Origin: a virus
Taxonomy: Duplodnaviria > Caudoviricetes
Length of the DNA stretch: 64,000 bases
Direction: 5' to 3' (one strand)
IMG/VR virus record: IMGVR_UViG_3300021431_000107
Span: 18,741 to 82,740 of that record
The translations under genes were made by a program, and so were the position numbers. Numbering within the stretch: the stretch's first letter is position 1; every line of letters begins with the position of its first letter. Positions 2,692-26,855 of the stretch are shown here, one piece after another. The notes under the pieces are model-generated. The model had not been told where the DNA came from, searched no databases, and saw nothing but the letters and a program-made list of their open reading frames with translations.

Positions 2692-2823
2692 TTCACCTCC
2701 GTATCAATTACCCGTCCACAATATTGGCGGATTTCTCAGTTTTATAGCAACTGTCGATGTTACGAAATCGAGAAAAAGAGAGCACCTGCAATAACTTCTA
2801 CAGATGCTCTCATTTCGAGTTAC

Positions 2824-3168
2824 TTATTCATGCTCATCCATATTTTCATGTTCTTTCCATTCTTCAAATTCGTTCCAGTTACTTATGGACTCGAAAGCAT
2901 AATCAGTATAAATTGTTCCTTTGTTAACAGGATGTGTAAGCATTGCCTTTTGTTCGTCCAGCTTGACTTTGGTTATACTGATCCCATCAATTAAGTTTCG
3001 TAGCTTATCGTTGTCATCAAGACACTTAAGTTTAAGATCTCTTACAACAGTTTTCGCCTTCTCTTCAGATGAGAACATACCAACCAAACATGGTAATACT
3101 CTCCACTCATATTCCTCGTCATCGTATATCCCATAACTAACAACCCATACATATCTCTCGTTTTCCAT
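2824..3168 (-). CDS. Hypothetical protein
   Basis: GGAGG RBS; own promoter (3211-3235) and terminator (2778-2811). Confidence 0.75.
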   Translation of the reverse strand: MENERYVWVVSYGIYDDEEYEWRVLPCLVGMFSSEEKAKTVVRDLKLKCLDDNDKLRNLIDGISITKVKLDEQKAMLTHPVNKGTIYTDYAFESISNWNEFEEWKEHENMDEHE

Positions 3169-3229
3169 AGTTTCTCCTCCTATAGTGAAAATATGATCCA
3201 TAAGTTTCTCATTATAGGAGCTGTTTATA

Positions 3230-3601
3230 TTACGAAACCACCCATACTTCTTTATTTATACTTTTATACTTCTTCATAATTTCCTTTACTCCAAGAACCT
3301 CTTTTGCCCTCTTATAGTCAAGACCACCTTCTACTGTGCTTGCCTTTTCAAGAACAATTGTATACCGGACAAGAGCACCCATTTCCTCACGAATCTCATC
3401 TACACTCTCATCTTTTGCGTGTTCATACGCTTCATGAACATTCTCAAAGGCGTTGCTAACCTTTCCAAGTTCAATCATGATAGCCCTCTTTGAAATCTTG
3501 GTTTTTGGTTCTTCCCCTTCTTTAAACTTATAGTATCTCTCAGGTCTATAGTTTTTAAAGTTGTTTACTCCATAAAGTACAAGTGAAAGTTTGCTTTTCA
3601 T
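3230..3601 (-). CDS. Hypothetical protein
   Basis: ORF coupled to neighbours. Confidence 0.7.
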   Translation of the reverse strand: MKSKLSLVLYGVNNFKNYRPERYYKFKEGEEPKTKISKRAIMIELGKVSNAFENVHEAYEHAKDESVDEIREEMGALVRYTIVLEKASTVEGGLDYKRAKEVLGVKEIMKKYKSINKEVWVVS

Positions 3602-3969
3602 AAATTAATACCTCCTAAATATTTAATTTCTTCATTTTGAGCACTGCTATCTTCTTCCTCTTCACCAGGCTCATCCTCGTCTCCAAGTTCCCTCATTTGA
3701 CTCAGCATTCTATTGAGTTCCGATATAATAGTTGAAGTCATACTGCCATCTGCCAGAGATTCAAGAACATCTATCACAATCTCTGAATCATAAGTTACAT
3801 CGTTTCTATCACGAAACTTAAAATTGATAAGTAAGTCTCCTCCAGCTACTGGTCTATAAGATATAAGGTAGTCTTCTTCTCCTTCAACAATATCGCTGTC
3901 TGCCAGCCATTTCTTTACAGCGTACTCAATAGTTTCCAAATATAATGCATGCGGTTCATCTGTAATCAT
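3598..3969 (-). CDS. Acidic hypothetical protein
   Basis: ORF coupled to neighbours. Confidence 0.7.
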   Translation of the reverse strand: MITDEPHALYLETIEYAVKKWLADSDIVEGEEDYLISYRPVAGGDLLINFKFRDRNDVTYDSEIVIDVLESLADGSMTSTIISELNRMLSQMRELGDEDEPGEEEEDSSAQNEEIKYLGGINL

Positions 3970-4294
3970 TTCTGCTCCAATTCTCTTTACATACTAAGAC
4001 ACAGGGAAAGTCTGAAGATACCATTTTGAGAAGATAATTAGTATCAGTTTCACTAAGCTCTATATCATACCAGTCATAGTCGGAATCATTCGCTGTTGGA
4101 GACGCCATTACTGTTATCTCATTCCTGTTATCCCCTAAATACTCAAGACTTATTGTCATTAAATCAGCTTCATCCTGATACTTTTCTGGAAGGTATTTCT
4201 TTGGCCCAGTGAAATATAATGTTGTGGAACCATGATACAAATTAAAGTAAGTATCCTCGTATTTGAATTCCTTTACATTAATCCCATCCGCCAT
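3956..4294 (-). CDS. Hypothetical protein
   Basis: ORF in operon. Confidence 0.7.
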   Translation of the reverse strand: MADGINVKEFKYEDTYFNLYHGSTTLYFTGPKKYLPEKYQDEADLMTISLEYLGDNRNEITVMASPTANDSDYDWYDIELSETDTNYLLKMVSSDFPCVLVCKENWSRNDYR

Positions 4295-4298
4295 AAGA

Positions 4299-4553
4299 TC
4301 ACTTCCTCCTATGTCTTAAATTGTGATTCCTCATTCTGCTGACTCTGTATCTGATATCGTCATCAATCATTTTGAGAGCAGATTTAGAATCTCTAACCAA
4401 ATCAAGTTGCTCCTTGTAAGAACGGTACTTTTCACATGACGAGTGACACGCCATATGTCTATCAGCACAATCCTTACAAGGAGCTATGATACTTACATGA
4501 ACCGCTTTAGCATTAACCTTTATTTCTTTCCCTCGGTTAATACCTTCATCCAT
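4299..4553 (-). CDS. Cys/His-containing phage protein
   Basis: PCKDCADRHMACHSSCEKY motif. Confidence 0.7.
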   Translation of the reverse strand: MDEGINRGKEIKVNAKAVHVSIIAPCKDCADRHMACHSSCEKYRSYKEQLDLVRDSKSALKMIDDDIRYRVSRMRNHNLRHRRK

Positions 4554-5173
4554 TACTTCTCCTTAAACTTATCAGCAATCGACGAGTAGATAGTGCCCAC
4601 ATTCTCAAGCTGATTGTTGTAGTTATCCAGAATCAAATCCATGTCGTCTTTAAGCTTCTCCATGATAAGGTCTTTGGCATCGTCCTTAACCTCCTCACGA
4701 AGCTCATGAATATCGATCTTCATGATCTGTTTCTTAAGTTCCTTCGAGACTTCTTTTGAAATCTCAGAGTACCTATTTTGAACAGCATCACGAACCTGAC
4801 GAGTTACATCATCGCGGATGGCTACGGTCGTATCATCTACAGCACGACGAACAGCAGCAGTTACTGCTTCATCTGCAGCATCACGAGCAGCACGATCAAT
4901 GATAGCCTGAGAGACCTGAACCGAAGACTTATTCTTGAGATCCCGAACAGCAATCCCAAGCTTATCAGATACTCTGCCAATTTTGATACTGGATCTAATG
5001 CCGAAGAGTAACGCCACTCCTACTCCTGCAATCATACCCCATCCAATGAGATCTGCCTTCGTGATAGTGATACCGTCTTTCTTGGTTTCCTTAGTTTCAA
5101 CGACCTGCTCTTCTCTTCTTTCCATAGTGTCTTCTCCTTTCATTTTGATACAGTTGCCACTTATACTAATCAC
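4553..5173 (-). CDS. Membrane-anchored coiled-coil protein
   Basis: One hydrophobic segment followed by helical heptads. Confidence 0.7.
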   Translation of the reverse strand: MISISGNCIKMKGEDTMERREEQVVETKETKKDGITITKADLIGWGMIAGVGVALLFGIRSSIKIGRVSDKLGIAVRDLKNKSSVQVSQAIIDRAARDAADEAVTAAVRRAVDDTTVAIRDDVTRQVRDAVQNRYSEISKEVSKELKKQIMKIDIHELREEVKDDAKDLIMEKLKDDMDLILDNYNNQLENVGTIYSSIADKFKEK

Positions 5174-9469: not shown

Positions 9470-9565
9470 TTTGAGCTCCTTTCCTTTCACTTTCTCTCGT
9501 AAGGTACTCCAAAACAAAAGGAGCACCTGTATCATTTACAGATGCCCCTGTCCCCGGTTAATAAG

Positions 9566-9895
9566 TTACTTTTCGGAAGTCTCACTTACGACTTCTGAAA
9601 CAGTCTCAGCAATCTCCGGAACCTTTTCCGCAATCTGGGGAACAGTTCCAGCTCCTCCGCCGGGAAGAACAATATCATCCTTTCCGAAGACCTTTCCGAT
9701 GACGCCCATTGCCAGCGTCCCACCCAAGATCCCGTACACAGTACAGGCGATCTTAGAAGTGGCCGCCTTCTTGACGCCACGGACAGCCTTCTTAAAGAAG
9801 CCATCCTTCTTCTCAGCAGGAGTTTCCGGTTTATTGTTCTCCTGATTCTGGTTTTCCAGTTCCTGATCGTTGTTTCTGATTTCTTCATTTGCCAT
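9566..9895 (-). CDS. Hypothetical membrane-anchored protein in its own cassette
   Basis: Promoter 9939-9963 and terminator 9519-9548. Confidence 0.75.
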   Translation of the reverse strand: MANEEIRNNDQELENQNQENNKPETPAEKKDGFFKKAVRGVKKAATSKIACTVYGILGGTLAMGVIGKVFGKDDIVLPGGGAGTVPQIAEKVPEIAETVSEVVSETSEK

Positions 9896-10188
9896 AATAA
9901 AAATCCTCCTTTTAAAATAAATGTCTTATTAACATGTCATTATATGCCTTGCATTTTTTACGAATCTGTTGTTAAACAGAACGTTACGTAATGTGTAATC
10001 TAGTCACTATTTATCTTGAGCATGTCCGCATTTCCTCATCTGATAAAGCTGATACATGCTACTCTTTCCAAGTCTCCTTGGCCCAAAGCTAATCTGAGCC
10101 ATTGTCGTAGAAAATGCATCCTTTTCACTGATCTGATCAGCAAGTTTCTGAATCGAGCTAAGAGATGCAAATACTGCTGCCGCGTCTT

Positions 10189-10536
10189 TCATTCTTTCTC
10201 CTCTTCTTTCCATCCATTTTGAACCCAGTTTGGAGCCATCTTGTAAACCGTATACCCAAAGCCGCCACAAACATCACACTTTACGTCTTTATATGCAGCT
10301 TCATACACAAATCCAGAATCAGGTAAACCACTTGGATAGCCGTTATACTCAACCTTCACATATCCACGTCCGTTGCATTTAGGGCATTCATGTGTTCTAT
10401 TTCCTTTAATAGCAGTGAATATACTCGATAAAGTGGCTCCAGGACCGTATTTTTCGATCATTTGCTTTATTGTATATGCTTCACTACATTTAGGTTCATA
10501 CCATCCAATCATCTTATTCTCCTCCCGTTGTTTCAA
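10189..10536 (-). CDS. DnaJ-type Zn-finger-like protein
   Basis: CPKCNGRG and CDVCGGFG (CxxCxGxG twice). Confidence 0.65.
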   Translation of the reverse strand: MKQREENKMIGWYEPKCSEAYTIKQMIEKYGPGATLSSIFTAIKGNRTHECPKCNGRGYVKVEYNGYPSGLPDSGFVYEAAYKDVKCDVCGGFGYTVYKMAPNWVQNGWKEEEKE

Positions 10537-10605
10537 AGCATCGTTTTGAGTAACTTAGTTGCTTCCTCGATTCCACGACATGTATAATCAAAGTCGTCAC
10601 AGTTA

Positions 10606-10794
10606 TCACATTTCCTCATCCTGCCTTTCAGTAATCCATTTATCAAATAGCTTTTCGCATGAGTCACAAAGATTAATTTCCTTAGAATAAAGGCTTACTT
10701 GAGGATACTTAATGATTCTATAAGTAGGAATTTTTGCTGTTCCATGATTATTTGGTATTACCGATCCGCATTTGTCACATACTTTTTTAATCAT
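10606..10794 (-). CDS. Small Zn-binding protein
   Basis: CDKCG...LCDSC. Confidence 0.65.
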   Translation of the reverse strand: MIKKVCDKCGSVIPNNHGTAKIPTYRIIKYPQVSLYSKEINLCDSCEKLFDKWITERQDEEM

Positions 10795-10803
10795 ACGATT
10801 ACC

Positions 10804-11034
10804 TCACTTCAAATCGTCGTCATCAGGGATCTGTCTAACTGTAGTTTTGGCCTTCTCAAGGAGCTTATCATGGTCGGCTAACTCCATTTTGAGATCGTCA
10901 ATCTGTTCCTGAAGCCTCTCGATGTACGCTGCTGTCTCTGAAGGCACTGCTGGATCGCTTCTCTTTATGTGATTTAAAAAGTTTTTCCAGTTTCTACCCT
11001 GAAAATTGATGGATTTTGCCATATTTTTCACCAT
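10804..11034 (-). CDS. Hypothetical coiled-coil protein
   Basis: ORF in operon. Confidence 0.6.
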   Translation of the reverse strand: MVKNMAKSINFQGRNWKNFLNHIKRSDPAVPSETAAYIERLQEQIDDLKMELADHDKLLEKAKTTVRQIPDDDDLK

Positions 11035-11375
11035 CCTTTCTTAAGATCCGGGATAGAATCAGCAAAGTCAGCACCTTCAAACCGATAAATCACCCTATCA
11101 TCAGAAAGAGCCTCTTTAATTTTTCTTGCACGATAAGAAACACGCTTAAAAAATCCATCTGACGGAACCCTTTCGTTAGCTTTAACGAACCTTCTGCAGT
11201 TACAAACAGGACAAGTGTACGCATATCCTGTAGGTTCCCATGATCCAGACGTATTCATGAAGCCAATCGGACGAAATTCAGACTCTTTTCCTCGTATGAG
11301 AGAGTCGCAATGCCCGCAAACGACCTCAAATCTCCTCTGAAAGTGCCTTCCATTGCCATTTTTAAGTGTTCTCAT
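11028..11375 (-). CDS. Zn-ribbon hypothetical protein
   Basis: CGHC...CPVC. Confidence 0.65.
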   Translation of the reverse strand: MRTLKNGNGRHFQRRFEVVCGHCDSLIRGKESEFRPIGFMNTSGSWEPTGYAYTCPVCNCRRFVKANERVPSDGFFKRVSYRARKIKEALSDDRVIYRFEGADFADSIPDLKKGW

Positions 11376-11589
11376 CCTCTTTTTCCTCCTTATTCACGCT
11401 GTTTTCAGTACATCTTGTTCTACATAGTCTATTCGTATCGAATAAATACAGATCTTCAATGTACAAATACTGACAACTCATGCATTTTTCTTTTTCAATC
11501 GCCTCTTTTTCATCATCCAACGCCTGTCGCCACCTTGCCAAACCTTGAAATATGCGTTCTCCAGCCCAAATTCCCTTCATTTTGAGCAT
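11362..11589 (-). CDS. Hypothetical Cys protein (start uncertain)
   Basis: CMSC...CRTRC. Confidence 0.5.
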   Translation of the reverse strand: MLKMKGIWAGERIFQGLARWRQALDDEKEAIEKEKCMSCQYLYIEDLYLFDTNRLCRTRCTENSVNKEEKEDENT

Positions 11590-11707
11590 CAGAACGGTGT
11601 TTTTCTCTAAATTTCTTGAGTTTTAGCCCATCTTGTACTGTTGAAACCACATCAATTAGTCCAATCAGTACTAAAAACACTGTCATGATAACCCCTATGT
11701 ACTTCAT
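11513..11707 (-). CDS. Small membrane protein
   Basis: N-terminal hydrophobic segment; GGAG RBS. Confidence 0.6.
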   Translation of the reverse strand: MKYIGVIMTVFLVLIGLIDVVSTVQDGLKLKKFREKHRSDAQNEGNLGWRTHISRFGKVATGVG

Positions 11708-11905
11708 TTAAAGCTCCTCCTCTTCCTTTTTATCCAGATTCTTATGTACTTTTTCGTTCTTAATCCATGCCTGATAAGGACGAATCAGCATATAAATAGC
11801 CGTGATTAGAACAATAGCACCAAACGTATAGTCATGATTTAGGTTCCAGGCACCTGCAACGTATAAAATAGTAAACATACAGATGATATATTTAATCAGA
11901 TTCAT
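11708..11905 (-). CDS. Two-TM small membrane protein
   Basis: Two hydrophobic segments; GGAGGTG RBS. Confidence 0.65.
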   Translation of the reverse strand: MNLIKYIICMFTILYVAGAWNLNHDYTFGAIVLITAIYMLIRPYQAWIKNEKVHKNLDKKEEEEL

Positions 11906-12150
11906 AGTTCACCTCCCATCTCCTTGTATTTTTCACCTAGCATTTTAAATAGCTTAAGCTCATAGTCCTCATCTTTCGGTGAGATAGTAAACGACGCCTT
12001 CTTGAATTTCCCATCGATTGTCCCATGCATACCGATTTCAAAGACTTCTCTCGTCTCAGAGAAATGAATCTGAATAGTAAGAGCAGGATAATTCATAAGA
12101 AACTCGAACAATACAAGCTCAAGTTCTACAGTCATTTTGTTACTTGCCAT
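11902..12150 (-). CDS. Hypothetical protein
   Basis: Start at TCAAAATG. Confidence 0.65.
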   Translation of the reverse strand: MASNKMTVELELVLFEFLMNYPALTIQIHFSETREVFEIGMHGTIDGKFKKASFTISPKDEDYELKLFKMLGEKYKEMGGEL

Positions 12151-12229
12151 TTTGAGATCCTTTCGTTTCACTACAGAAAAAGAGAGACCCATCTTAATAG
12201 ACAGGTCCCTCTGATGTTACTAGTGTCCT

Positions 12230-13087
12230 TCACGGTTTGACTGTTGGTCTGCCACTCCAGTCTAGAACTGTAACAGATATCTGATTTATCTTCGCTGTAT
12301 TATACAAATGCGGTACAAGTGCAGAGGTCATTGATAACCCTCCAAATATAAATGCTTCTGCACATCCTACTTGTGGTAGACACATCTCCGCCAAGAACTC
12401 ATTGTAAGTGAAGAACGGTTCCTGTCCAGATGCCAGTCTGGTATTCATATAATTACATACTTCCATTATTGTCTTTTCATCAGATCGGAAAACCATCCCG
12501 GTCATATGGTCATAAAATACCTGTGATCCTCCACGAGCTTGAATTATTCCATCTGGCCAATACTCGCCAACTTCGAAAAATGGATAGTCTCTTTCTACCT
12601 TATTTTGAGCAGCCTTCTCTTGAATCTCCTGCATCTTCTCCTCTCCGACTTCCTCTTTAGTCGCCTTGAAGAGATCCTGATACATTGCATCTGATACTAT
12701 TGCTGCTTCATGCCATTTTGAGATAGCCTTACCAGCGTACACGGCCATTCCAATGTTGAACCCTGCGGTTGCTGTTGCACAGATTACTACAGGAGCCGAT
12801 ACAACTACGAGTTCCTTAAGTGTGTGCCTTGTTGTCTTCTTTCTCTCCTCTGCCTTTTCCTCATCAGTGAGAAATGGATCATCATTTATCTCCTCGATTT
12901 CATGTCTCTTCTCCTCAAGAATCCTGTCAACTTTCGGTCTAGCCCTCCATGTGAGAACTACAGTAGCCGCAAGTCCAATAGTGGACCCGATTACTGTTGT
13001 AGCAGTAGAGTGCTCCATCGCTTTCGCAAATATAACGTCTGCACCCTTTTTGATTGTTGATGGTTTGAAGATGTCTAAGAATCCCAT
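12230..13087 (-). CDS. DUF6353-like phage protein
   Basis: N-terminal hydrophobic GSTIGLAATVVLTWRA; FYDHMTGMVFRS, N.RL...F..YNEF motifs. Confidence 0.65.
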   Translation of the reverse strand: MGFLDIFKPSTIKKGADVIFAKAMEHSTATTVIGSTIGLAATVVLTWRARPKVDRILEEKRHEIEEINDDPFLTDEEKAEERKKTTRHTLKELVVVSAPVVICATATAGFNIGMAVYAGKAISKWHEAAIVSDAMYQDLFKATKEEVGEEKMQEIQEKAAQNKVERDYPFFEVGEYWPDGIIQARGGSQVFYDHMTGMVFRSDEKTIMEVCNYMNTRLASGQEPFFTYNEFLAEMCLPQVGCAEAFIFGGLSMTSALVPHLYNTAKINQISVTVLDWSGRPTVKP

Positions 13088-13259: not shown

Positions 13260-13329
13260 ACTATACCCTCTGTAGTTTTTACGAGTTGCTGTACACTGAC
13301 ACGTTCTCTTTGTTCACGTATAGTTCATG

Positions 13330-15499: not shown

Positions 15500-15510
15500 T
15501 TTGAACCTCC

Positions 15511-16209: not shown

Positions 16210-16263
16210 TTTTGATCTCCTTTCTTGAAACATCTAATAGTTCCATTATAGGAGTTGTTTTTG

Positions 16264-16617
16264 TTACGAGTTAACGATTATCGATCCTCTTTCCAGTGCA
16301 AAGTCTTTAGCCATTTTGAAGTCTCTTTCCGACAGAACATAGTGATTATTTTCCAGTCCGAAGATTGCTCCAAGACGACAGGCAACTTTGTCAATGCACT
16401 TAGGATAGATAGCACTCATGAACAGAGCTTCTCCTTTACTATCAGGTTTTACAAGAACTTCATGTGTCTCTTCAAGAAAACCAATCATGATATCGTCGTT
16501 GGAAGTTTTCTTAACCTGAGTAATAAGTCCATCTCTTTTGCAAGCAGATACAATACCTGCGATACAAAGTGCTGCTCCACCAATAATAGCTGCATAATCT
16601 TCAAATGTTCTTTTCAT
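16264..16617 (-). CDS. Membrane-anchored hypothetical protein
   Basis: N-terminal hydrophobic helix. Confidence 0.7.
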   Translation of the reverse strand: MKRTFEDYAAIIGGAALCIAGIVSACKRDGLITQVKKTSNDDIMIGFLEETHEVLVKPDSKGEALFMSAIYPKCIDKVACRLGAIFGLENNHYVLSERDFKMAKDFALERGSIIVNS

Positions 16618-16644
16618 ACCATCTTCTCCTTTCTCCTGTGCATA

Positions 16645-16932: not shown

Positions 16933-16988
16933 TTTGATCTTCTCCTTTTCATTCTCTCCAGAAATATAAGAGTCATTTAACATCACGG

Positions 16989-17267: not shown

Positions 17268-17283
17268 TTTTACCTCCTTTCAA

Positions 17284-18054
17284 TCATCTAGAACACATCA
17301 TTTTAAAGCATTCCTCGTAGATATCTGCCTTCTGTTTCGTGAGTGCCATCTCCATGTCTGCTTCCGTGTAGATAGCATTAGGATTTGTAGCGGTCTCAAC
17401 TACTTTCTCAGGAACCTTAACTTCAACAATCTTCTCAACCGGCTCAATACCGAGGAAAGAAGAAAGCTCATTCCTGATATCAGTGAGCATGGAAAGAGGA
17501 ATATTCCAGCTTCTCTCAATGAAGTACTTGAGCGGCTTGTAGTAAAGTTTATGACAGGAGCTAATATTTCCATCTACATCGTTAGTGAAATATGGAGTAC
17601 AAATAGCAAACGAGTCAGTCCACTCAACGGAAAGGATGATATACTTTTCAGTGGTTCCATTACTTGACTTCACATCCCATACCTGTCCAGGAGCAAACTC
17701 TACTGTCTTCTTAAACTCAACTTTCTTAGGTTCAACATTGTTAATTGCCTTTGATGCTGTCAGATCCATATATCCCTCGTCGTTTCTATAATCTGGATAT
17801 CTCGTTGATGCTACAACGATCTTCTCCTCTTTCTTAGGTGCTGGTATGTAATAGATCGCTCCACGTTCTTTAGCAATGCTTTCAGGATACTGCTGTTCGA
17901 GATTGTCTATGTCTCTATACAGCGTGTTATAAGAGATACTGAAAAGATTGAGTAAATCCTTTACTTTAAACTTTTTACCAGGATCTTCCTTAAGAATCTC
18001 ATACAGCATCTGGCATCTTTCGTTAGCTTTTTCAACCTGAATAGTGTTCCCCAT
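17284..18054 (-). CDS. Winged-HTH-containing protein
   Basis: N-terminal FKVKDLLNLFSISYNTLYRDIDNL HTH; DEGYMDLTA motif. Confidence 0.65.
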   Translation of the reverse strand: MGNTIQVEKANERCQMLYEILKEDPGKKFKVKDLLNLFSISYNTLYRDIDNLEQQYPESIAKERGAIYYIPAPKKEEKIVVASTRYPDYRNDEGYMDLTASKAINNVEPKKVEFKKTVEFAPGQVWDVKSSNGTTEKYIILSVEWTDSFAICTPYFTNDVDGNISSCHKLYYKPLKYFIERSWNIPLSMLTDIRNELSSFLGIEPVEKIVEVKVPEKVVETATNPNAIYTEADMEMALTKQKADIYEECFKMMCSR

Positions 18055-18120
18055 TTTGAATCCTCCCTTTTGAAATACGTTGCTTTGTGATATATGAGAG
18101 AAAAAAAGAAGGAGTCCATG

Positions 18121-18321
18121 TTAAGACTCCTTTTTCCTCCTTTCTTTAAATAACTCACTGCCAAATCCGACGGTCATGATGACCACGAACAGCATGCCAA
18201 CAGCTGCTCGAAACCAGAATACGAATGGCTCGGTAACGTACTCATCAGCCCATCTGCCAATTTCCGTCCCGAATGCCATCATAAACAGGCTCCACATAGT
18301 TAACATAAAAGTTCTGTTCAT
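18121..18321 (-). CDS. Two-TM small membrane protein (cassette)
   Basis: Promoter 18360-18384; terminator 18110-18132. Confidence 0.75.
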   Translation of the reverse strand: MNRTFMLTMWSLFMMAFGTEIGRWADEYVTEPFVFWFRAAVGMLFVVIMTVGFGSELFKERRKKES

Positions 18322-18526
18322 ATCTTCGTCCTCCTTGATATAAGTTGATTTAATCTATCATTATAGGAACTGAATTTTTTACGATTAGTTCACTACGTTC
18401 ACACGGTCAAACTCGCAGACTCGTTTAACACGAAAAAGAAAGAGGCAACACTCATTACATTCGTAAACGCCTATAAGAAAAGAAAGAGGCATTGAAGCCT
18501 CTCTCCGAAATGCTCTTTTATCGATT

Positions 18527-18592
18527 TTATCCACGCTCGCTGAACAATATATAAAGTCCAACGGCGATGAGAATACATCCTAATAAAGTCAT
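18527..18592 (-). CDS. 21-aa hydrophobic peptide MTLLGCILIAVGLYILFSERG
   Basis: ATGA overlap with upstream stop codon; precedes terminator 18486-18504. Confidence 0.5.
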   Translation of the reverse strand: MTLLGCILIAVGLYILFSERG

Positions 18593-18792
18593 TCCGCAGA
18601 TTCCTCCTTTGCCTCTTCTCTTTTAAGCGTTACGTACCGCTTCTTGAACGGGTTTTTAATGAGTTTACGAGTTTCCTCAATCTCCTTCTCCAAATGTTTG
18701 GAGTCTGCAGTCGAGTATCCTGTAATATAACCCAGGACCCACTGTGCAAATCCAAATACGAGAATTCCGATGATACCTGCTACATTTCTCAT
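18589..18792 (-). CDS. Single-TM protein (cassette)
   Basis: RBS AAAGGAG before ATG 18792; promoter 18830-18854. Confidence 0.75.
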   Translation of the reverse strand: MRNVAGIIGILVFGFAQWVLGYITGYSTADSKHLEKEIEETRKLIKNPFKKRYVTLKREEAKEESAE

Positions 18793-18996
18793 CTTTCGTC
18801 TCCTTTCATAAAAACGTGTTAACGTATCCATTATAGGAGTTGATTTTTTTACGAAGATGTTCACTCCGCTCACACGGTCAAACTCGCAGACTCGTTTAAC
18901 ACGAAAAAAGAAAAAGCGACGCTCACTATCGTTCATAAGGTCTTTGAAAAAGAAAAGCCCTGGAAGTGCATAATAGCTACTCCCAGAGCCTTTATA

Positions 18997-19209
18997 TTAC
19001 CAGAGATCGTGAGCATCTTTAATAAGCTCAATCCAGTCCTCCATGTTAATAGTTCCCTGTTTCTCAAGTTTATCGTGTATCAAGATACGCAGCGTCTTGG
19101 ACTCGTCGCAGTACTTGATGGCTTTCTGATAGTCATCGTTCGTGCGCCAGTACATAGCAAGAACGCTAAGTTCTAATACCACAAAAATGATAATTATAGT
19201 TCCTAACAT
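18997..19209 (-). CDS. Single-TM protein (cassette)
   Basis: Promoter 19265-19289; terminator 18957-18990. Confidence 0.75.
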   Translation of the reverse strand: MLGTIIIIFVVLELSVLAMYWRTNDDYQKAIKYCDESKTLRILIHDKLEKQGTINMEDWIELIKDAHDLW

Positions 19210-19341
19210 ATTGATTTCCTCCTTTAAAATAATCTATATTAAAAAAGAAGCTCACAATCTTCTCATAATATGCATTGTAAAGTTTACGATACGATAGGCA
19301 AAAATAGGAGCAGCTGTACAATTTGCTGCTCCGTCCTCCTT

Positions 19342-19545
19342 TCACATCATCCTTTGGATCTCTTCAATCTGATCCATCATCCTCTTGTTACTTCCGAGAA
19401 ACATCTCGGTTAAATCGCTGAGTTCCTGACTGATATTATCCAGTCTCTGCTGGACATCAATCATGTGCTCACGTTTAATCATAGAGTTGCTCTTTTTCAC
19501 CTGATTTGATTTCTTCAACATTTTTAAATCCTCCTTATAGAACAT
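19342..19545 (-). CDS. Coiled-coil small protein (cassette; start probably 19521)
   Basis: Promoter 19565-19589; terminator 19307-19332. Confidence 0.7.
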   Translation of the reverse strand: MFYKEDLKMLKKSNQVKKSNSMIKREHMIDVQQRLDNISQELSDLTEMFLGSNKRMMDQIEEIQRMM

Positions 19546-19684
19546 AATGTGCTTATATCTCTATAATAGGAGGTGTAAATATTACGAATTGCTATATCTC
19601 GAAAGAAAAAAAACAGATTGTAGAGAATCCGTTCAACTTCCTTTTCCTTCAAAAGCTTAATCTTTTTCAAGATCCTTCATCAAT

Positions 19685-19864
19685 CTACAATAACCATAGG
19701 TGATTAGCCCTTAGGTCACTGTAATCAACAGTCTGCCTGGTAATATCCATTTTATCGATCGTCACATCGTCATATGCGGATATCTTACATTTTCGGTGCA
19801 TCCAACCGCGACCTCGTTCTAGCTCACAGATTTGACTAATAATCTGCCGGTCCTTAACATTCAT
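19685..19864 (-). CDS. 59-aa hypothetical protein (cassette)
   Basis: Manual ORF downstream of promoter 19889-19913; weak RBS. Confidence 0.45.
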   Translation of the reverse strand: MNVKDRQIISQICELERGRGWMHRKCKISAYDDVTIDKMDITRQTVDYSDLRANHLWLL

Positions 19865-20000
19865 ATGATGAATATTACCTTTATCTTCATTATAAGTGAT
19901 GTAATTTTTACGATTGCTCAGTACCCTCGCACGGTCAAACTCGTTCCTCGTTTAACACGAAAATAAGAAGCCACTGTATATTTCACAGTGGCCTCATCTA

Positions 20001-20177
20001 TCACTCCTTTCTTTTCTTGAAACAGTATCCGATAATGGCTCCAATAACCAGTACCGGAAACAGAATGGCAAAGATAGTTAAAGCAATCGGCCAAATGGCA
20101 GCCAAGATGCCTACAACAAGCGGCAGTGCAATCAGCGCCATAAGAGCGAGTGCCATAACAATGATCATCTTAATCAT
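20001..20177 (-). CDS. 58-aa very hydrophobic two-TM peptide ending KKRKE
   Basis: GGAGG RBS; promoter 20226-20250; terminator 19968-19994. Confidence 0.75.
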   Translation of the reverse strand: MIKMIIVMALALMALIALPLVVGILAAIWPIALTIFAILFPVLVIGAIIGYCFKKRKE

Positions 20178-20292
20178 AATTGTCTCCTCCTTTATTTTGA
20201 GTAGTTATCGTTTACATTTCTTTCCATTATAGGAACTGTTTTTATTTCGAAAGAGAGAAGCCACTGTTTCATTTACAGTAGCTTCATGTCTT

Positions 20293-20394
20293 TTAAAACA
20301 TCATACTTGCAACCCCATTGATAGTTGCGTTTGCAATACAAATCTGGGCGAAGGTTCCTCCAAAGAACCATCCACCGATATATCCAAACAACAT
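20293..20394 (-). CDS. 33-aa Gly-rich hydrophobic peptide
   Basis: MLFGYIGGWFFGGTFAQICIANATINGVASMMF; AAGGAGG RBS; promoter 20428-20452. Confidence 0.65.
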   Translation of the reverse strand: MLFGYIGGWFFGGTFAQICIANATINGVASMMF

Positions 20395-20492
20395 CTCAAT
20401 TCCTCCTTTTTATTGGGTTTTATTTCTATAATAGGAGGTGTAAATTTTACGAAAAAAGAGGACCAAGATTTCTCTTGATCCCCCAAATTGTG

Positions 20493-20582
20493 CTATGATC
20501 TGTTCCCCTGTATTATGTCGATTGCAGAAGCAACGAGCAATGCCACAGCGAGAACAATCTCAACAATCTCGGTCTTTCTCAT
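20493..20582 (-). CDS. 29-aa single-TM peptide
   Basis: MRKTEIVEIVLAVALLVASAIDIIQGNRS; GGAGG RBS; terminator follows. Confidence 0.6.
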   Translation of the reverse strand: MRKTEIVEIVLAVALLVASAIDIIQGNRS

Positions 20583-20760
20583 CTTCGTCCTCCTTTTCCT
20601 TTTGAGTAATGCCACGTTTATTAAGTCTCCTTTCTACCGCCCGATCAATGGCGATGTCCTGCTGTTTCTTCGATACCTGGCCTCCAAGCCAACCAAGTAT
20701 CAAGCCAAGAATAGTAAGACCCATTCCGCCATTAATAAGCTCTTTAAATTTTTCTTTCAT
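20560..20760 (-). CDS. Single-TM protein (cassette)
   Basis: Promoter 20797-20821. Confidence 0.75.
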   Translation of the reverse strand: MKEKFKELINGGMGLTILGLILGWLGGQVSKKQQDIAIDRAVERRLNKRGITQKEKEDEDEKDRDC

Positions 20761-20858
20761 AATTTTCCTCCTTTTTAAAAACGTGATTACTATTTCACTA
20801 TACGGCTTGAAAAAAATACGAGAGCCACTGTATTATCCACAGCAGCTCCCATTTTGAG

Positions 20859-21215
20859 TTAGAGTAACTTTTCCGCGATATAATCTGCCATGTCCAAAGT
20901 GTTCATTTCTTTATAGAAGTTTTCACGAAAGTCAATCACCGTTTCAGGTATATGCGTGTTATTCATGACTGTCATAGCTTCCGGAAAGTTGTCTTCTATG
21001 GTCTTAAGTGTTGAATTTGATCCGATCGCTCCAACGTCATCAATCACATCATGGATGTTACGCATCACTTTAAATTTGTGACTAGTAACACCGACCGTGT
21101 AACCGATTCCTGCTGTTACTGCTCCGATTAAAATTGCTCCACCATAAACAGTCAACTCTACCGTATGATCGTCAACCCACTTCCTGATTTTGCCTTTTTC
21201 TTTCTTATTTTCCAT
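20859..21215 (-). CDS. Single-TM protein (cassette)
   Basis: Promoter 21258-21282; terminator 20822-20848. Confidence 0.75.
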   Translation of the reverse strand: MENKKEKGKIRKWVDDHTVELTVYGGAILIGAVTAGIGYTVGVTSHKFKVMRNIHDVIDDVGAIGSNSTLKTIEDNFPEAMTVMNNTHIPETVIDFRENFYKEMNTLDMADYIAEKLL

Positions 21216-21368
21216 AAATATCTCCTTTCATTTTAAGATATCGCTTACAAGTTCCTCACTATAAGGACTGTATTTAATGCGAGCTCGTTTCACTCGCCAT
21301 CTCTTACTAAGTTCGAGAAGAAAAGAACAGAAGCCACTGTATTATATACAGCAGCCTCTGTTGTCAAA

Positions 21369-21923
21369 TTATTTGATACTAAGTTTAGGATTCTGACCGA
21401 GTCCCATCTTGCTCACAAACCATCCATTCCGATCCGCATAGATTGCAAGACACGTACCTGCGAATCCAAGACCCGCTACTGCAAGTCTCGACCCGTTCTC
21501 AGTTACGATCTTTACGAGTTCACCTTTCTGACGCTTCTTGGCTGCGGTCGCTTCGTTTTCAACTTTCTCCTTTTCGAGTTTCAGATTCTCCTCTTCAAGG
21601 TCCAGCCTCTTCTGATCCATCTGAAGCTTAGAATCACTCATTTCCCTTTCGGAATCCAGTTTCTTCTGCTCCATCTCGATCTTAGAAGAGCTAATCTCCT
21701 TTTCAGAGTCCATCCGTCTCTCTTCAAGCTCAAGTTTCTCACGATCGACCTCAATCTTTTCGCGTTCGATATCGGCTTTCTCGCTATCCGTTACCATCTT
21801 CATGAGAGTGTCAAGATCTTTGATAGCGTTGTATCTATCGTCGGATCCCAGCTCCATGTGCTTGATCTTTGCAAGATCGTTATTAATGATTTCGTTTACA
21901 AGGATTTTTGTTTCTACAGTCAT
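21369..21923 (-). CDS. Charged coiled-coil repeat protein with C-terminal hydrophobic segment
   Basis: Repeated EKLE/KRLD heptads; promoter 21962-21986. Confidence 0.8.
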   Translation of the reverse strand: MTVETKILVNEIINNDLAKIKHMELGSDDRYNAIKDLDTLMKMVTDSEKADIEREKIEVDREKLELEERRMDSEKEISSSKIEMEQKKLDSEREMSDSKLQMDQKRLDLEEENLKLEKEKVENEATAAKKRQKGELVKIVTENGSRLAVAGLGFAGTCLAIYADRNGWFVSKMGLGQNPKLSIK

Positions 21924-22025
21924 ACAAATTCCTCCTTATTACAAATCAAACAATTTGCTTCACTATACGACTTGTTTTTTATGCGAATTTGGAATACAAT
22001 AAACTTGCAAAACACCAAAGAGGGT

Positions 22026-22241
22026 CTACTTTTCGAGTTTAATCTTGAGATAGATCCTCTTCCTTTTTGGAAGCTTAGACAGGTCCTCCGATACTTCAAT
22101 TCTATACGTATCCTTTTCAATATCGGTCTTGTCGATAACAAGCGTTCCAGCATTTGGTGATTTAATGATATGCCAAACCGATACAAAGATCGATCCAAAG
22201 ATATTCCCTAAAATAAAAGCTCCAACATAAAACCAAATCAT
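22026..22241 (-). CDS. Single-TM phage protein
   Basis: GGAGGTCTCAAAATG; GTLVIDKTD...YRIE. Confidence 0.75.
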   Translation of the reverse strand: MIWFYVGAFILGNIFGSIFVSVWHIIKSPNAGTLVIDKTDIEKDTYRIEVSEDLSKLPKRKRIYLKIKLEK

Positions 22242-22277
22242 TTTGAGACCTCCTTTCATAAAAAAAAGAGACCGCAT

Positions 22278-22562
22278 TTAAGCGATCCCTCTTACTCTTT
22301 TCCACTCGTAACGTCCATACATAGATTCATGTACTCCATCGACATAAATCTCGTAACCGCAGCCATACGGACTCATTGACTTCAGTAAGAACAGATGATC
22401 AAGCTCCTTCTTTGGAACAAGACCTCTAAACATAACGATATCTTCTTTATCGACTCTATAAAGATGCCTCGTCCAGTTTTCAAGATCGTCGATTAACTGT
22501 TCCATCATACAGTCCTTTTTGTCCAGGACTACAGCTACGTAGTTAAATCTCAAATCGTACAT
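22278..22562 (-). CDS. Hypothetical protein (cassette)
   Basis: Promoter 22597-22621. Confidence 0.7.
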   Translation of the reverse strand: MYDLRFNYVAVVLDKKDCMMEQLIDDLENWTRHLYRVDKEDIVMFRGLVPKKELDHLFLLKSMSPYGCGYEIYVDGVHESMYGRYEWKRVRGIA

Positions 22563-22905
22563 AAAAATCTCCTTTGAAATAAAGTTATAAGTTTCTATTA
22601 TACGAAGTGGTTTTATTACGAAAAAAAAGAAGCACCTGTATTTCTACAGATGCTTCTGAGTACCTAGTTTTCTCTTTCAAGTCTGTTTTTCAGAATGGAG
22701 AGAGATCTAATGCTTTCATTGAATTTCTTAGCCTTCTGTTCACAGTTCTCATCCATTGCCCGATGCATAAGTTTCGTATAGTTCTGGATAAGACTGTTCA
22801 CGAACTCTAATGTCTCAAAAGTTTCTACATTTTTACTCATGTCATTCCTCCTATAATATAACTTGATTTACTAGTTCCTATTATAGGAGTTGTAATTTTT
22901 TCGCA

Positions 22906-23145
22906 TTACCATCTCACATCATCTTCGTCTCTGTCATAGTAAGGTCTACCGGTTCTAAGTTCAAACTCGTAGTCCTCACCGGCTTGTATATCCCCTGCAG
23001 TTATCTCCATGGCACATTTACCGCACATATTACCTTCTGGCCACTCCTCATCGTAATCTGTGTCATAGTCACTAAACTCATCATTGTACATTTCCCTTGC
23101 TTCGTCAACATCAAATCGTTTCCCACAATGAATACACTTTGCCAT
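22906..23145 (-). CDS. Highly acidic Zn-ribbon protein
   Basis: CIHCG...CGKC with Asp/Glu-rich spacer. Confidence 0.75.
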   Translation of the reverse strand: MAKCIHCGKRFDVDEAREMYNDEFSDYDTDYDEEWPEGNMCGKCAMEITAGDIQAGEDYEFELRTGRPYYDRDEDDVRW

Positions 23146-23261
23146 TTTGAGACCTCCTTTTATAGATGTATAACTGGTTCTATAAAGAAGATATCATAGA
23201 AAAAGAAAAGGGACAAGACTTGACTTTCTCATCCCTTTTCAGTATAATGCGCGCTGCTTTT

Positions 23262-23513
23262 TTAGTAGTTAAACTTATTTAATCCCTTAAAGAACTTCCA
23301 ATCCTTACTGAATCCCTTTGGCTTCTCAAGACTCCCAGACAAGATAGAGAACGCATAAAACGTCATTTCTACCATTTTCCTGTGATTAATTCTATCTATA
23401 AGTCTAGAATGCTTCACAACAAACTGGTATACAGCTTCATCCGTTACTCTTACGTCAGGAAAATCTGCGTAATTTGTCAACTCGTACCTAAGAGCTTTAA
23501 TGATTTTACCCAT
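23262..23513 (-). CDS. Hypothetical protein (cassette)
   Basis: Promoter 23551-23575. Confidence 0.7.
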   Translation of the reverse strand: MGKIIKALRYELTNYADFPDVRVTDEAVYQFVVKHSRLIDRINHRKMVEMTFYAFSILSGSLEKPKGFSKDWKFFKGLNKFNY

Positions 23514-23622
23514 AAGTTTCCTCCTTTTTAAAAACATAACATTTTGCATCATTATACGAATTGAATTTATTACGATACAGCTCAGTCCATTCTCGTACCA
23601 AACGAAAAAGAAATAGCCCCTG

Positions 23623-23856
23623 TTAAGAGGCCATCTCTCCTATAATTTCATGATACATCTCATCGAGTTCTTTAAATTCAGATTCAGACACATAGCATCT
23701 AAACTGCATGCCAACGAGATCGTCTTTTCTCTTGATGAAACGAATGCTATAAGCCACACGAAGTACCTCGCATACCTTAGAGAATCGTTCGATTTCATCA
23801 TGAGTTGCAAGAACGAAATCCCACACGATGCACCGTCTTTTACTCTGCTTAATCAT
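23623..23856 (-). CDS. Hypothetical protein (cassette)
   Basis: Promoter 23892-23916. Confidence 0.7.
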   Translation of the reverse strand: MIKQSKRRCIVWDFVLATHDEIERFSKVCEVLRVAYSIRFIKRKDDLVGMQFRCYVSESEFKELDEMYHEIIGEMAS

Positions 23857-23947
23857 GTCTCTTCTCCCTTCAAGTTAGAACAATTTGTATCATTATATCC
23901 GGTGTAAATAGTTCGAAGGTATTTTGAGAAAAAAAAGAAGACGCAGA

Positions 23948-24124
23948 TTACTCTGCATCCTCATGAGCCGAACGGATAATCCGGCGAATTGAATCGTCGC
24001 TATATCCGCAAGACTCACAAAGACCTGCGTAGTAATCCACGTCCTCTTCGAACCCCTCATGGCCGAGGGTACGACCATAGAGATTCTCAGCAGCGACCCT
24101 AAGCCGCAATCTGAGGTTACTCAT
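23948..24124 (-). CDS. Small hypothetical protein (cassette)
   Basis: GGAGGTG RBS; promoter 24167-24191. Confidence 0.7.
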   Translation of the reverse strand: MSNLRLRLRVAAENLYGRTLGHEGFEEDVDYYAGLCESCGYSDDSIRRIIRSAHEDAE

Positions 24125-24246
24125 ACTTGTCACCTCCTTTCCCTCGGTATATATTAGTAGGTTCCTATACTATGCATTGTAAATTTTACGATACGATAGT
24201 AAAAACAAGAAGCCACTGTAATAGCTACAGCAGCCTCTGTTTTGAG

Positions 24247-24471
24247 TTATTTAATCAATACTTTCACGTAAGGAATTCCATCGTCATCGCCAATTTCGAT
24301 CCACCATTTATCGACCTCAGCAGTATCATATCCGGAGAAGGTTCTTGCAATCTTATCTGCTGGAAATGTTCCAATCCAGCACGTATGATTAGCCAGGATT
24401 ATGTCTTTCTCCACGATCGATATTACTAAGTCCTTATCTTTCAATGTTACCACAAGATCCTTAAGTTTCAT
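24247..24471 (-). CDS. Hypothetical protein (cassette)
   Basis: Promoter 24511-24535; terminator 24208-24241. Confidence 0.75.
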   Translation of the reverse strand: MKLKDLVVTLKDKDLVISIVEKDIILANHTCWIGTFPADKIARTFSGYDTAEVDKWWIEIGDDDGIPYVKVLIK

Positions 24472-24615
24472 AACGTTTCCTCCTTCATTTAAGTATGTTA
24501 ATAACTTATCATTATATGTATTGTTTTTATTACGAAAAAAAAGAAGCGTCGCTCATGTTATTCGCTACGTCCTCAAAAGAAAAAGAGGCCCTGTAAAAGC
24601 AGCCTCTTGATGCAG

Positions 24616-24909
24616 TCAAATAGCATACTTGTCAAGCAGTCTCTTTAAGTCCTCCTTTTCCCTCTGAAGCTCACCAATCTGCTTCTCAAGGCTATTGATT
24701 TCCATGCTCTTCTTAACATTCTCACGGCGATAATATGAGACATCATTGTCACGATCCTGCAGTCTGATACGAAGTCCTTCAAGAAACCTATTGATCTCAA
24801 CAATCTCATTGAAATCATCAGCTTCTCCGTCTCCGTAAGTCAGCAGCATAACGTGCTTCTTGATCTCCTCAAACATATCAACCTGAGCAGTGTTATTCAG
24901 TTCTTCCAT
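24616..24909 (-). CDS. Coiled-coil protein (cassette)
   Basis: Promoter 24945-24969; terminator 24583-24608. Confidence 0.75.
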   Translation of the reverse strand: MEELNNTAQVDMFEEIKKHVMLLTYGDGEADDFNEIVEINRFLEGLRIRLQDRDNDVSYYRRENVKKSMEINSLEKQIGELQREKEDLKRLLDKYAI

Positions 24910-25056
24910 TTTGAATCTCCTTTCTTAAATCAATTGATTGCTTCATTAAAGCAGTTGTTTTTATTTCGAACACGCTCAGTCCCCTCGCACCGCCAAACTC
25001 TCTTTGTTCGTTTAGCTGAAAAGAAAGAGGCAGATGTTACTCTGCCCCTATGGAAC

Positions 25057-25350
25057 TTACTCGAATGATGATAAATCCCATACATGATACGGGGAAATAT
25101 GCATCTCAATGCCAAGTTCTTCCTTGAAGTAGTTTTCAATTACTTCTGTTATTTTGTCGTTCTTGGCAAGAGGTAATGCTATTTCGCTGTATTCTTTATA
25201 TAGTTTCAATACCTCTTCATCTGTAAGTCCGGTAGGTAAAGTAACATAGCCCCTTACTTCTTCTAGTGATTTCTTAATTACTTTGTTCAACTTCTTCTCT
25301 AGCTTTTCAGTAATTTTAACTCCTCCAGGATAGCAGTTGTGTAACCTCAT
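25057..25350 (-). CDS. Hypothetical protein (cassette)
   Basis: Promoter 25367-25391; terminator 25027-25047. Confidence 0.75.
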   Translation of the reverse strand: MRLHNCYPGGVKITEKLEKKLNKVIKKSLEEVRGYVTLPTGLTDEEVLKLYKEYSEIALPLAKNDKITEVIENYFKEELGIEMHISPYHVWDLSSFE

Positions 25351-25408
25351 AAAAATCACTCCTTTCACTATAAGGGCTGTATAAAATGCGAAAAAGAAAG
25401 AGCCCTTG

Positions 25409-25822
25409 TTAGGACTCAATCTCTTCCAGCTGAATTTCATTTAGCTTTAATTCTTCCATTTTCATATGAACTTCACGAATCTCTTCCTCTTCTGCATTAC
25501 AGAAGTCGTATGTTGCATGCACCGTGCATAGACTTTCATATTCTATTGTAAGTTTACTTATATAGCTATGAACGATATCACAGTGTTTACCCTTCCCTAG
25601 CGTTATAAGCGCATCCATTAGATCTGGCGAAGTCATTTCACTTCCCATAATTTCTCTTTTTTGTGCGTTTTTACATGCTTCAAAGTGTGAAGTATAAACT
25701 TTCACTATAGCGTTCATAGCTTTTTCAATCGAATCGCATACAATAACGATAGCCATTTCGTGTGCATGAATATTCCAACTTGGTCTGTCCACCTTAGAGT
25801 ACATCGTTACTTGATACATCAT
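25409..25822 (-). CDS. Hypothetical protein (cassette)
   Basis: Promoter 25860-25884. Confidence 0.75.
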   Translation of the reverse strand: MMYQVTMYSKVDRPSWNIHAHEMAIVIVCDSIEKAMNAIVKVYTSHFEACKNAQKREIMGSEMTSPDLMDALITLGKGKHCDIVHSYISKLTIEYESLCTVHATYDFCNAEEEEIREVHMKMEELKLNEIQLEEIES

Positions 25823-26084
25823 ATGATTTTCTCCTTTCGTTAGCTAATGTAGCTGTTTCACTATAGCCACTGTATAAAATTCGAAAAAGAGAACCAGTTG
25901 CAATAACTGATTCTCTAAGTAATCATGGGTATATCATGTCCACGAATGCCGACTGAATAAGTTTACCCATCGTTGCTTTGTCGTCTAACCATAACATAAT
26001 ATGATCACTCCTTTCTATTTTAGGGACTGTATTTTATGCGAAAAGAAAGACCAGTTGCAATAACTGATCCTTCCATTTTGAAAG

Positions 26085-26378
26085 TTATCCCCATCTAGTC
26101 CATACAGTATCTCCATAGGGAGATGTTACCTCTTCAAGGCCCCATTTCTTGCGGAGCTTGTTCCAAAAGAGTCCAGGCATTTCCACTCTGATAAGTACGA
26201 TGTCATATACATTCTTTCCAGTCGCCGATTCAACTATCGATGATTGCTCGACGCCGGTTACTTTTCCACCGCACTCTTCAAGAGCTTTAGCTACCTCTTT
26301 TACGTTAGTTCCATGTCCGAACATAAGTGTCCTTGTTTCTGTTTTCAGCTCCCTAAAGATATTGTTAATAAACGCCAT
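26085..26378 (-). CDS. Hypothetical protein (cassette)
   Basis: Promoter 26402-26426. Confidence 0.75.
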   Translation of the reverse strand: MAFINNIFRELKTETRTLMFGHGTNVKEVAKALEECGGKVTGVEQSSIVESATGKNVYDIVLIRVEMPGLFWNKLRKKWGLEEVTSPYGDTVWTRWG

Positions 26379-26468
26379 AGTAATTCCTCCTTTCGCTTTT
26401 CATTAAAGGAGTTGTATAAATTGCGAAAAAGAAAGAGCACCTGTAATAGATGCTCCTCTTGCATGATA

Positions 26469-26783
26469 TTATCGTTCCAACAGTTTATTTAATTCAGTCT
26501 CCTCGACATAGTAAGATATTTTATAGCTCTCTCCCCATCCTTTCAAAACACATCTGTAAGTCGCTTCATAAGTTTCGCAGTCATTGTCATTTGTAACATT
26601 GAGCTCACTAACTTTAGATACGGCAACACTATCAGTAATTTTTTTATAGTGTTGCTTAATTATTTCTTTAGCGTTCTCAAAGTTATCACCTACACCAATA
26701 ACATCTTTACCATAGTCCTTATAAGTGTCTTCATATATGTCTTCTTCCATCCAGTACTTCACTACTAAATATACTTTATTCAT
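26469..26783 (-). CDS. Hypothetical protein (cassette)
   Basis: Promoter 26820-26844; terminator 26434-26460. Confidence 0.75.
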   Translation of the reverse strand: MNKVYLVVKYWMEEDIYEDTYKDYGKDVIGVGDNFENAKEIIKQHYKKITDSVAVSKVSELNVTNDNDCETYEATYRCVLKGWGESYKISYYVEETELNKLLER

Positions 26784-26855
26784 ACATCTTCTCCTTTCAT
26801 TAAAAAGCTAATTGGTTTCACTATAAGCACTGTATAAAATTCGAGGACCGACCAT

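Follow-up and report, generated by a model that had tools for sequence, protein, structure and literature searches.

Phage-encoded, single-polypeptide RNA polymerases (RNAPs) of the two-barrel type are the closest described counterparts of the system analyzed here, which comprises a repeated promoter-like motif in a 64,000-nucleotide stretch of phage DNA (the window, bases 18741-82740 of the 82,740-bp IMG/VR phage record IMGVR_UViG_3300021431_000107) and a 1028-residue protein encoded elsewhere in the same record. Thermus phage P23-45 has QDE-1-like two-barrel RNAPs, the virion enzyme gp96 and the non-virion gp64, and the virion enzyme reads 14 conserved AT-rich promoters. The present system resembles it in pairing such a polymerase with a strongly conserved motif that stands in many copies before early genes and is confined to relatives that encode the enzyme. 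It differs in having one polymerase, of another family, with helix-turn-helix (HTH) modules at both ends and no tape-measure fusion, and in a promoter, known here from sequence alone, that is built of a bipartite box and an A/T hexamer and belongs to phages of Firmicutes and Actinobacteria. YonO of the Bacillus prophage SP-beta is likewise a single-polypeptide two-barrel RNAP of a Firmicutes phage; it serves one late operon from one start site, whereas about 30 promoters are predicted here over early and middle genes, and terminal HTH domains are not reported for it. What determines the promoters of YonO-like polymerases was still an explicitly open question in 2017 (PMC5467207). Proteins of phage 1706 have already been placed among the YonO-like two-barrel polymerases by sequence (PMC2919709). 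The 1706-family enzyme, which has a DxDGD loop and HTH domains at either end, is the signature gene of a supercluster of Arthrobacter, Gordonia, Rhodococcus, Microbacterium, and Streptomyces phages together with Lactococcus 1706-group and Faecalibacterium phages, and has so far been a predicted polymerase with no known target (bioRxiv 10.1101/842583). Neither PMC2919709 nor bioRxiv 10.1101/842583 mentions a promoter for it. The literature that we searched holds no link between motif and polymerase, which is not proof of absence.

Promoters of phage polymerases such as T7 combine a part for recognition, an A/T part for melting, and a start at a purine. The motif shares with T7-type promoters the upstream recognition part, the A/T part that abuts a purine, and the occurrence in many near-identical copies on one strand; the polymerase folds are unrelated, and the T7 promoter is contiguous (-17 to +6) and read by enzyme loops instead of HTH domains. 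T4 middle promoters, a MotA box with a sigma-70 -10 element and no -35, place the box 12-13 bp from a TAnnnT hexamer, a spacing comparable with the 13 bp seen here. They depend on host sigma-70 remodelled by AsiA and MotA. Here, counterparts of these proteins are not conserved, and over the family as a whole the hexamer lacks the behaviour of a -10 element. A 32-bp 'boundary' repeat occurs between the small genes of cluster AU Arthrobacter phages, members of the same supercluster; the sections of that report on which we draw interpret it as a recombination hotspot, not a promoter, and make no link to a polymerase (bioRxiv 10.1101/2020.01.10.891226). Judged by the description and location given in those sections, it is probably the same element as the motif.

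We consider it likely, with a probability of roughly 0.7, that the 30 sites of the motif in this genome are promoters of the phage's own single-polypeptide two-barrel RNAP. Sigma-4-like HTH modules inside the polymerase would read an upstream box, TCGTA at motif positions 1-5, together with (T)ACA at positions 11-14, about one helical turn away. The A/T-rich hexamer at positions 20-25 would be the melting region, and transcription would begin at, or no more than 1-2 nt from, the conserved purine of position 26. Every small early gene would form its own unit bounded by a hairpin and T-run terminator, and the last promoter would drive an endonuclease-exonuclease-polymerase operon beside cos. More speculatively, polymerase packed in the virion would enter with the DNA and fire the motif promoters first; in this phage, an acquired integrase/cro module with ordinary SigA promoters would sit ahead of the array.

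The motif and its distribution in the genome

The motif was searched as TCGHAW-N6-CA-N5-TAnnnT, and a position weight matrix (PWM) was scanned over the whole 82,740-bp record. The exact pattern occurs 24 times, 23 of them on the minus strand, against 0.35 expected, and none of 100 shuffles reaches 24; allowing one mismatch adds five sites on the minus strand. The PWM places 28 sites within the window and 30 in the whole genome, all on the minus (coding) strand, with scores of 19.5-40.3 bits and an empty gap from 12 to 19.5 bits. The two sites beyond the window lie at genome 17502 and genome 4380, and the structural half of the genome has none. Every site is intergenic or overlaps a stop codon. 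Beyond the pattern itself, positions 6-12 are never G, position 18 is C or G, and position 26, directly after the hexamer, is always a purine. In 26 of 28 sites the hexamer comes close to a perfect TATAAT/TATAGT, and A is the second base in equally many. The sites are a real promoter class, the promoter activity itself being predicted from these features.

An earlier note, made from the letters of the window, had described 27 copies within 2741-26844, all with fixed spacing and no TTGACA. The count is correct for that interval; the site at 2269-2293 was missed, and two more lie beyond the window. The geometry is the same in every copy, sigma-70-type matches stay at chance level in the motif region (54 against 52.9 expected), and positions -4 to 3 are almost without information. 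In all 11 genomes examined, sigma-70-type matches are at or below shuffle level. The overlaps that the note saw with stop codons at 3230 and 16264 are borne out by the sites at 3235 and 16269. Its restriction of the motif to the accessory region holds in part, since the sites outside the window also precede replication genes and the polymerase operon.

Hairpin and T-run terminators exceed expectation (23 versus 10.2; 20 of the 23 are on the minus strand), and many abut the motif; therefore, each small gene is a terminator-promoter cassette. In most cases, a start codon led by a Shine-Dalgarno (SD) sequence lies 34-43 nt downstream of position 26.

The polymerase and its co-occurrence with the motif

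The 1028-residue protein is encoded on the minus strand at genome 310-3396 (L009:310-3396), which places its gene 15.3-18.4 kb ahead of the first base of the window. Its match to phrog_4291, 'RNA-dependent RNA polymerase', has E = 5e-285, and the protein collection contains at least 2842 homologues; the SGADFDGD loop (DxDGD metal loop) is invariant in an alignment of 36 of them. The AlphaFold model has a pLDDT of 80.7, and the top Foldseek hits to it are QDE-1, the Thermus phage RNAPs P32 gp64 and P74 gp62, plant RDR2, P23-45 gp96, and a crAss-like virion RNAP, with E values of 1e-7 to 1e-6 for QDE-1 and the phage two-barrel RNAPs. A search of the sequence against PDB chains gave nothing meaningful. 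Pfam recognizes HTH parts only (sigma-70 region 4, GerE, and other HTH), at residues ~160-182 and 996-1027, and the protein has three N-terminal and two C-terminal HTH-like units. A conserved tag, L.HYGV.G...SGRY.WGSG, stands at its N-terminus, and the gene has a conserved neighbour that encodes 85 residues (phrog_4303). Judged by the predicted structure, the protein is a two-barrel RNAP of the YonO/QDE-1 class and the phage 1706 family, with a double-psi beta-barrel core. The remark in the earlier note that no sigma gene is present is true for the window; the polymerase just described is encoded outside it, 15 kb upstream of its first base.

The motif region had no Megablast match among phage records; relatives were found by a pattern scan of viral contigs for many motif copies. 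Five of these, G001-G005, have 5-20 copies each, always on one strand, and gut Firmicutes phages retain the geometry of the motif. They share head, tail, and replication proteins with this phage at 30-70% identity. A polymerase homologue of ~40% identity is encoded by G001-G004 and was not found in G005, a 51%-complete fragment. The motif recurs with unchanged geometry in named phages: with the box TCGCA, it stands on the coding strand of Rhodococcus phage ReqiPoco6 (12 copies), Streptomyces phage Rima (12), and Gordonia phage Duffington (7), while Arthrobacter phage Mudcat has a CGCG-box variant, and Lactococcus phage CHPC971 of the 1706 group has a CACA-box variant with the hexamer TATAGT.

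Starting from the enzyme instead, we scanned 80 polymerase-bearing IMG/VR viral loci with the PWM, its box positions blanked. Matches number 154 on the polymerase strand versus 11 on the opposite strand. Of the 80 loci, 66 have a site of at least 15 bits; it mostly stands 0.8-1.0 kb ahead of the polymerase gene, the place equivalent to that of the genome 4380 site in this phage, and the blanked box is recovered as CGCG, CGCA, or CGTA. The motif and the polymerase co-occur across a supercluster that spans Firmicutes and Actinobacteria hosts. Among 185,579 prokaryote species, represented by one genome each, several motif copies were found only on contigs of Lachnospiraceae/Lachnospira metagenome-assembled genomes; therefore, the host of this phage is probably a Lachnospiraceae bacterium, and the motif is not a host promoter type.

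Which enzyme reads the motif

The A at the second position of the -10 element is the most critical base of sigma-70 promoters. In the 112 family sites, the hexamer has A as its second base 55 times, T 47 times, G 7 times, and C 3 times, and its most frequent form is TTTTAT. We infer that the hexamer is a melting region and not a sigma-70 -10 element. At least ten sites in seven genomes, two of them in the window (26041 and 25391), have a good SD sequence from 1-4 nt past the hexamer at normal spacing from the start codon. Since a start 7 nt past the hexamer would delete this SD, the RNA probably begins at about position 26-27, at the invariant purine. The polymerase offers a candidate for reading the upstream box in its third N-terminal HTH unit (HTH-3). 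The HTH-3 helix reads (S/T)EGT(V/I)RN in all nine genomes that have the box CGTA, and ES(S/T)-type helices go together with C at box position 4 (CGC[AG]) in 62 of 65 genomes, the three exceptions having TG or TC at positions 4-5. The helix state changes seven times on a FastTree tree built with the HTH-3 helix columns left out. The covariation of helix and box is suggestive of recognition of the box by this helix.

The earlier note had rightly recognized a phage-specific, non-SigA promoter class with fixed geometry; it had supposed that host RNAP reads it with a phage activator or sigma adaptor bound at TCGHAW/CA. SigA would then use the hexamer as its -10 element and the bound factor would replace the -35 contact, as MotA and AsiA do in T4. 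The spacing of box and hexamer resembles that of T4 middle promoters, the hexamer of this phage is TATAAT-like, and the first motif comes after an operon with a canonical promoter. That operon belongs to a cro/integrase switch whose divergent promoters are the sole good canonical ones: TTGACG-17-TATAAT at 27809..27837 (minus strand), serving the cro-like operon 27654..26856, and TTGACA-17-TAAAAT at 27704..27732 (plus strand), facing the integrase gene 27885..29102. The factor favored by the note, the 118-residue product of 26856..27212 (minus strand), has in homology searches only an uncharacterised PHROG, no Pfam family, and no homologue in the motif-bearing G001-G005, where the cro-like gene and an 81-residue gene of the switch likewise have none. 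In G001, G002, and G004 the first motif follows directly after the tail genes, with no switch operon, so nothing would be made before the supposedly activated promoters fire; an activator expressed from an earlier promoter is therefore not a general explanation. A conserved phage activator of the MotA/AsiA type, made before the promoters fire, was not found in G001-G005, nor was an earlier promoter class. Furthermore, the -11 A is missing in about half of the family sites, SD boxes abut the hexamer, and the sole conserved DNA-binding protein is the polymerase itself. We hold activator-assisted host RNAP to be very unlikely. The second candidate factor of the note, 17284..18054, was rejected as a general one: it has a weak DeoR-type HTH alone and a homologue in a single relative.

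Slightly less probable still is that the unaided host SigA holoenzyme uses the sites as uniform strong early promoters, TCG and CA having another role, for instance in repressor binding or in recombination as 'boundary sequences'. In favor of it, this phage has good TATAAT hexamers with A/T-rich DNA ahead of them, and the cluster AU repeat was given a recombination-boundary interpretation in the sections cited (bioRxiv 10.1101/2020.01.10.891226). Against it, the sites have neither a -35 nor a TG extension, position 18 being C or G; the invariant bases are retained from Streptomyces to Lactococcus phages; many relatives have TTTTAT as hexamer; and recombination alone accounts neither for the strict confinement to one strand nor for the constant distance to the start codon. 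Three further interpretations of the motif were considered and rejected. TTTACA at positions 9-14 could be the -35 of a second, downstream -10, but positions 32-37 are not conserved. A dimeric operator is hinted at by partly symmetric bases (G3/C13, T4/A12, A5/T11), but the invariant TC and CA are asymmetric and the halves do not covary. L5-type stoperators do not fit, as every site has a hexamer at fixed distance and lies 16-55 nt before an SD-led start, and most relatives are lytic and have no repressor.

If the phage polymerase reads the motif, the enzyme has to be present at the start of infection or be made by the host. The polymerase homologue orf75 of phage 1706 is a 'structural protein' in the authors' GenBank record, and so is gp106 in the record of ReqiPoco6. 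N4, crAss-like phages, and P23-45 are precedents for an injected polymerase. G001, G002, and G004 have no excess of canonical promoters and no other early promoter class; because lytic relatives lack such a class, an injected enzyme would be the simplest way to begin an infection. By analogy with these cases, we give delivery of the polymerase in the virion about even odds. Alternatively, the polymerase would read the motif without being carried in the virion: host RNAP, starting at an unrecognised promoter or reading through, would transcribe the operon of the polymerase before the phage enzyme takes over. SP-beta YonO is made after induction and is not known as a virion protein (PMC5467207), and this phage does have canonical promoters at its switch. 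Relatives nowhere show an excess of canonical promoters, however, terminators separate the early units, and orf75 is annotated as structural; we think this course of events unlikely, if clearly less so than a reading by host RNAP.

A tag, LAHYGVKGMKWG(V/Q)RK, occurs at the N-terminus of 2-7 proteins of the head/packaging module in relatives (ReqiPoco6 15-21 kb, Rima 2.6-6.3 kb, Mudcat 2.8-5.7 kb; also in G004 and G002). The N-terminus of the polymerase resembles it, and the tag may be a capsid-targeting or ejection signal; like the 'structural protein' annotations, this resemblance is indirect evidence for the enzyme in virions.

Several observations weigh against assigning the sites to the phage polymerase. 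The near-perfect hexamer of this phage is also the one that SigA prefers. No strong site is present in 14 of the 80 polymerase loci, nor in G007, a relative of 55% GC in which the motif search did not resolve a motif. The sign test for the covariation of helix and box is not significant (p = 0.5), because the tree offers only two independent pairs on supported branches. The polymerase gene stands behind one of the polymerase's own promoters, and its first expression poses a bootstrap problem unless injection of the enzyme or an initial host-made transcript solves it; and the label 'structural protein' of 1706 orf75 is an annotation untraced to primary data.

Recognition of the motif by the phage polymerase would supply a sharply defined ~30-bp promoter and a candidate reading helix, which make the question of the enzyme's target directly testable. 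Hundreds of phages have the predicted promoter, among them Lactococcus, Arthrobacter, Gordonia, and Streptomyces phages that are easy to grow. The pairing would explain the A/T-rich islands in the GC-rich genomes of these phages, the separate terminator-promoter cassette of each small early gene, and the '32-bp boundary repeat' seen in cluster AU phages. The broadest form of the proposal is more tentative, and we rate it somewhat below even odds: a self-sufficient, virion-delivered, single-polypeptide two-barrel polymerase with built-in sigma-4-like HTH readers would have kept its bipartite duplex promoter (CG[T/C][A/G] box, ACA, A/T hexamer, purine start) while its phages moved between Actinobacteria and Firmicutes. 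In that case, the helix-box covariation (EGT with GTA, ES[ST] with GC[AG]) would amount to a readable recognition code, and the motif would be the first defined promoter for any YonO-like enzyme, part of a compact, host-independent transcription module.

Individual sites, cassettes, and genome layout

The 28 sites in the window are all on the minus strand and are given here in the direction of transcription; each was found by PWM together with the exact pattern, or with the one-mismatch pattern where so stated. The array opens at 26820..26844 (32.3 bits), the first site after the switch operon, 11 nt past the stop of 26856..27212 and with a 36-nt leader to the ATG at 26783. The next site, 26402..26426 (one mismatch, hexamer TTTAAT, 35.1 bits), has a hairpin and T-run terminator immediately upstream. 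It is followed by 26017..26041, whose SD begins 3 nt past the hexamer, by 25860..25884, and by 25367..25391, where the SD begins 2 nt past the hexamer and the leader measures 16 nt. The site at 24945..24969 (one mismatch) again has the hexamer TTTAAT. Further sites lie at 24511..24535, 24167..24191, 23892..23916 (one mismatch), 23551..23575, and 22880..22904, the last with one mismatch, GCG replacing TCG. Terminators accompany 22597..22621 (at 22657-22628) and 20797..20821 (at 20852-20818), between which lie 21962..21986 and 21258..21282. The array continues with 20428..20452 and 20226..20250 (39.0 bits); then comes 19889..19913, with no SD-led open reading frame (ORF) within 87 nt, and after it 19563..19587, 19265..19289, 18830..18854, and 18360..18384. 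More widely spaced are 16245..16269, over the stop of 16264..16617; 13260..13284, followed by ~170 nt without an ORF; and 9939..9963. The top score of 40.3 bits belongs to 3211..3235, over the stop of 3230..3601, and the lowest of 19.5 bits to 2741..2765 (one mismatch, hexamer TATAAA). The site at 2269..2293, absent from the earlier list, scores 34.2 bits. Beyond the window, the genome 4380 site, the last motif promoter, overlaps the stop of a gene for a 424-residue helicase-like protein with a GTG start (L009:4375-5649, minus strand).

The terminator hairpins on the minus strand of window 9519-26868 form a sequence family, G[AG]GC..CTGT-loop-ACAG..GCT[TC]C followed by a T-run, and the terminator-promoter-leader cassette therefore behaves as a repeated module. 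Five cassettes have a second repeat of ~48 nt, CGTGTTAAACGAG...GAGTTTGACCGTGYGAG..GTGAAC, placed between the T-run of the terminator and the promoter, at 18385-18435, 18855-18905, 19914-19965, 24970-25020, and (23576-23600), all on the minus strand. Two stretches after motif promoters have no SD-led ORF, 13088-13259 (~170 nt) and 19802-19888 (~87 nt), both on the minus strand, and may encode small RNAs. One such ORF-less promoter unit is flanked by a pair of paralogous genes (phrog_2152) at window 12230-13087 and 13330-14124, minus strand.

All genes of the window are on the minus strand save the tyrosine integrase gene 27885..29102. In the direction of transcription, packaging, head, tail, and fibre genes (from ~63400 down to 29389) are followed by the divergent integrase gene, the three-gene operon led by the cro-like HTH gene (27654..26856), and ~25 kb of small genes; outside the window, beyond the small genes, come the replication genes and the polymerase gene, which adjoins the record end. 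The two ends of the record (genome 1-60, and 82100-82740, that is, window 63360-64000) have 18 bp in common, inside a G-run/C-run stretch that is also found in the related contigs G004 and G001 and at which many related contigs terminate. This stretch, just downstream of the polymerase operon, is probably the cos site. Between the polymerase operon and the packaging genes, the cos-like G-run/C-run is present but a motif is not, and no late promoter was identified; read-through across the joined cos ends is therefore possible for the late genes. The integrase has a zinc ribbon at its N-terminus. The integrase/cro module looks like a variable insertion, because the otherwise lytic-looking G001 keeps a 41-residue integrase remnant, 63% identical, at the equivalent place (G001:42046-42168).

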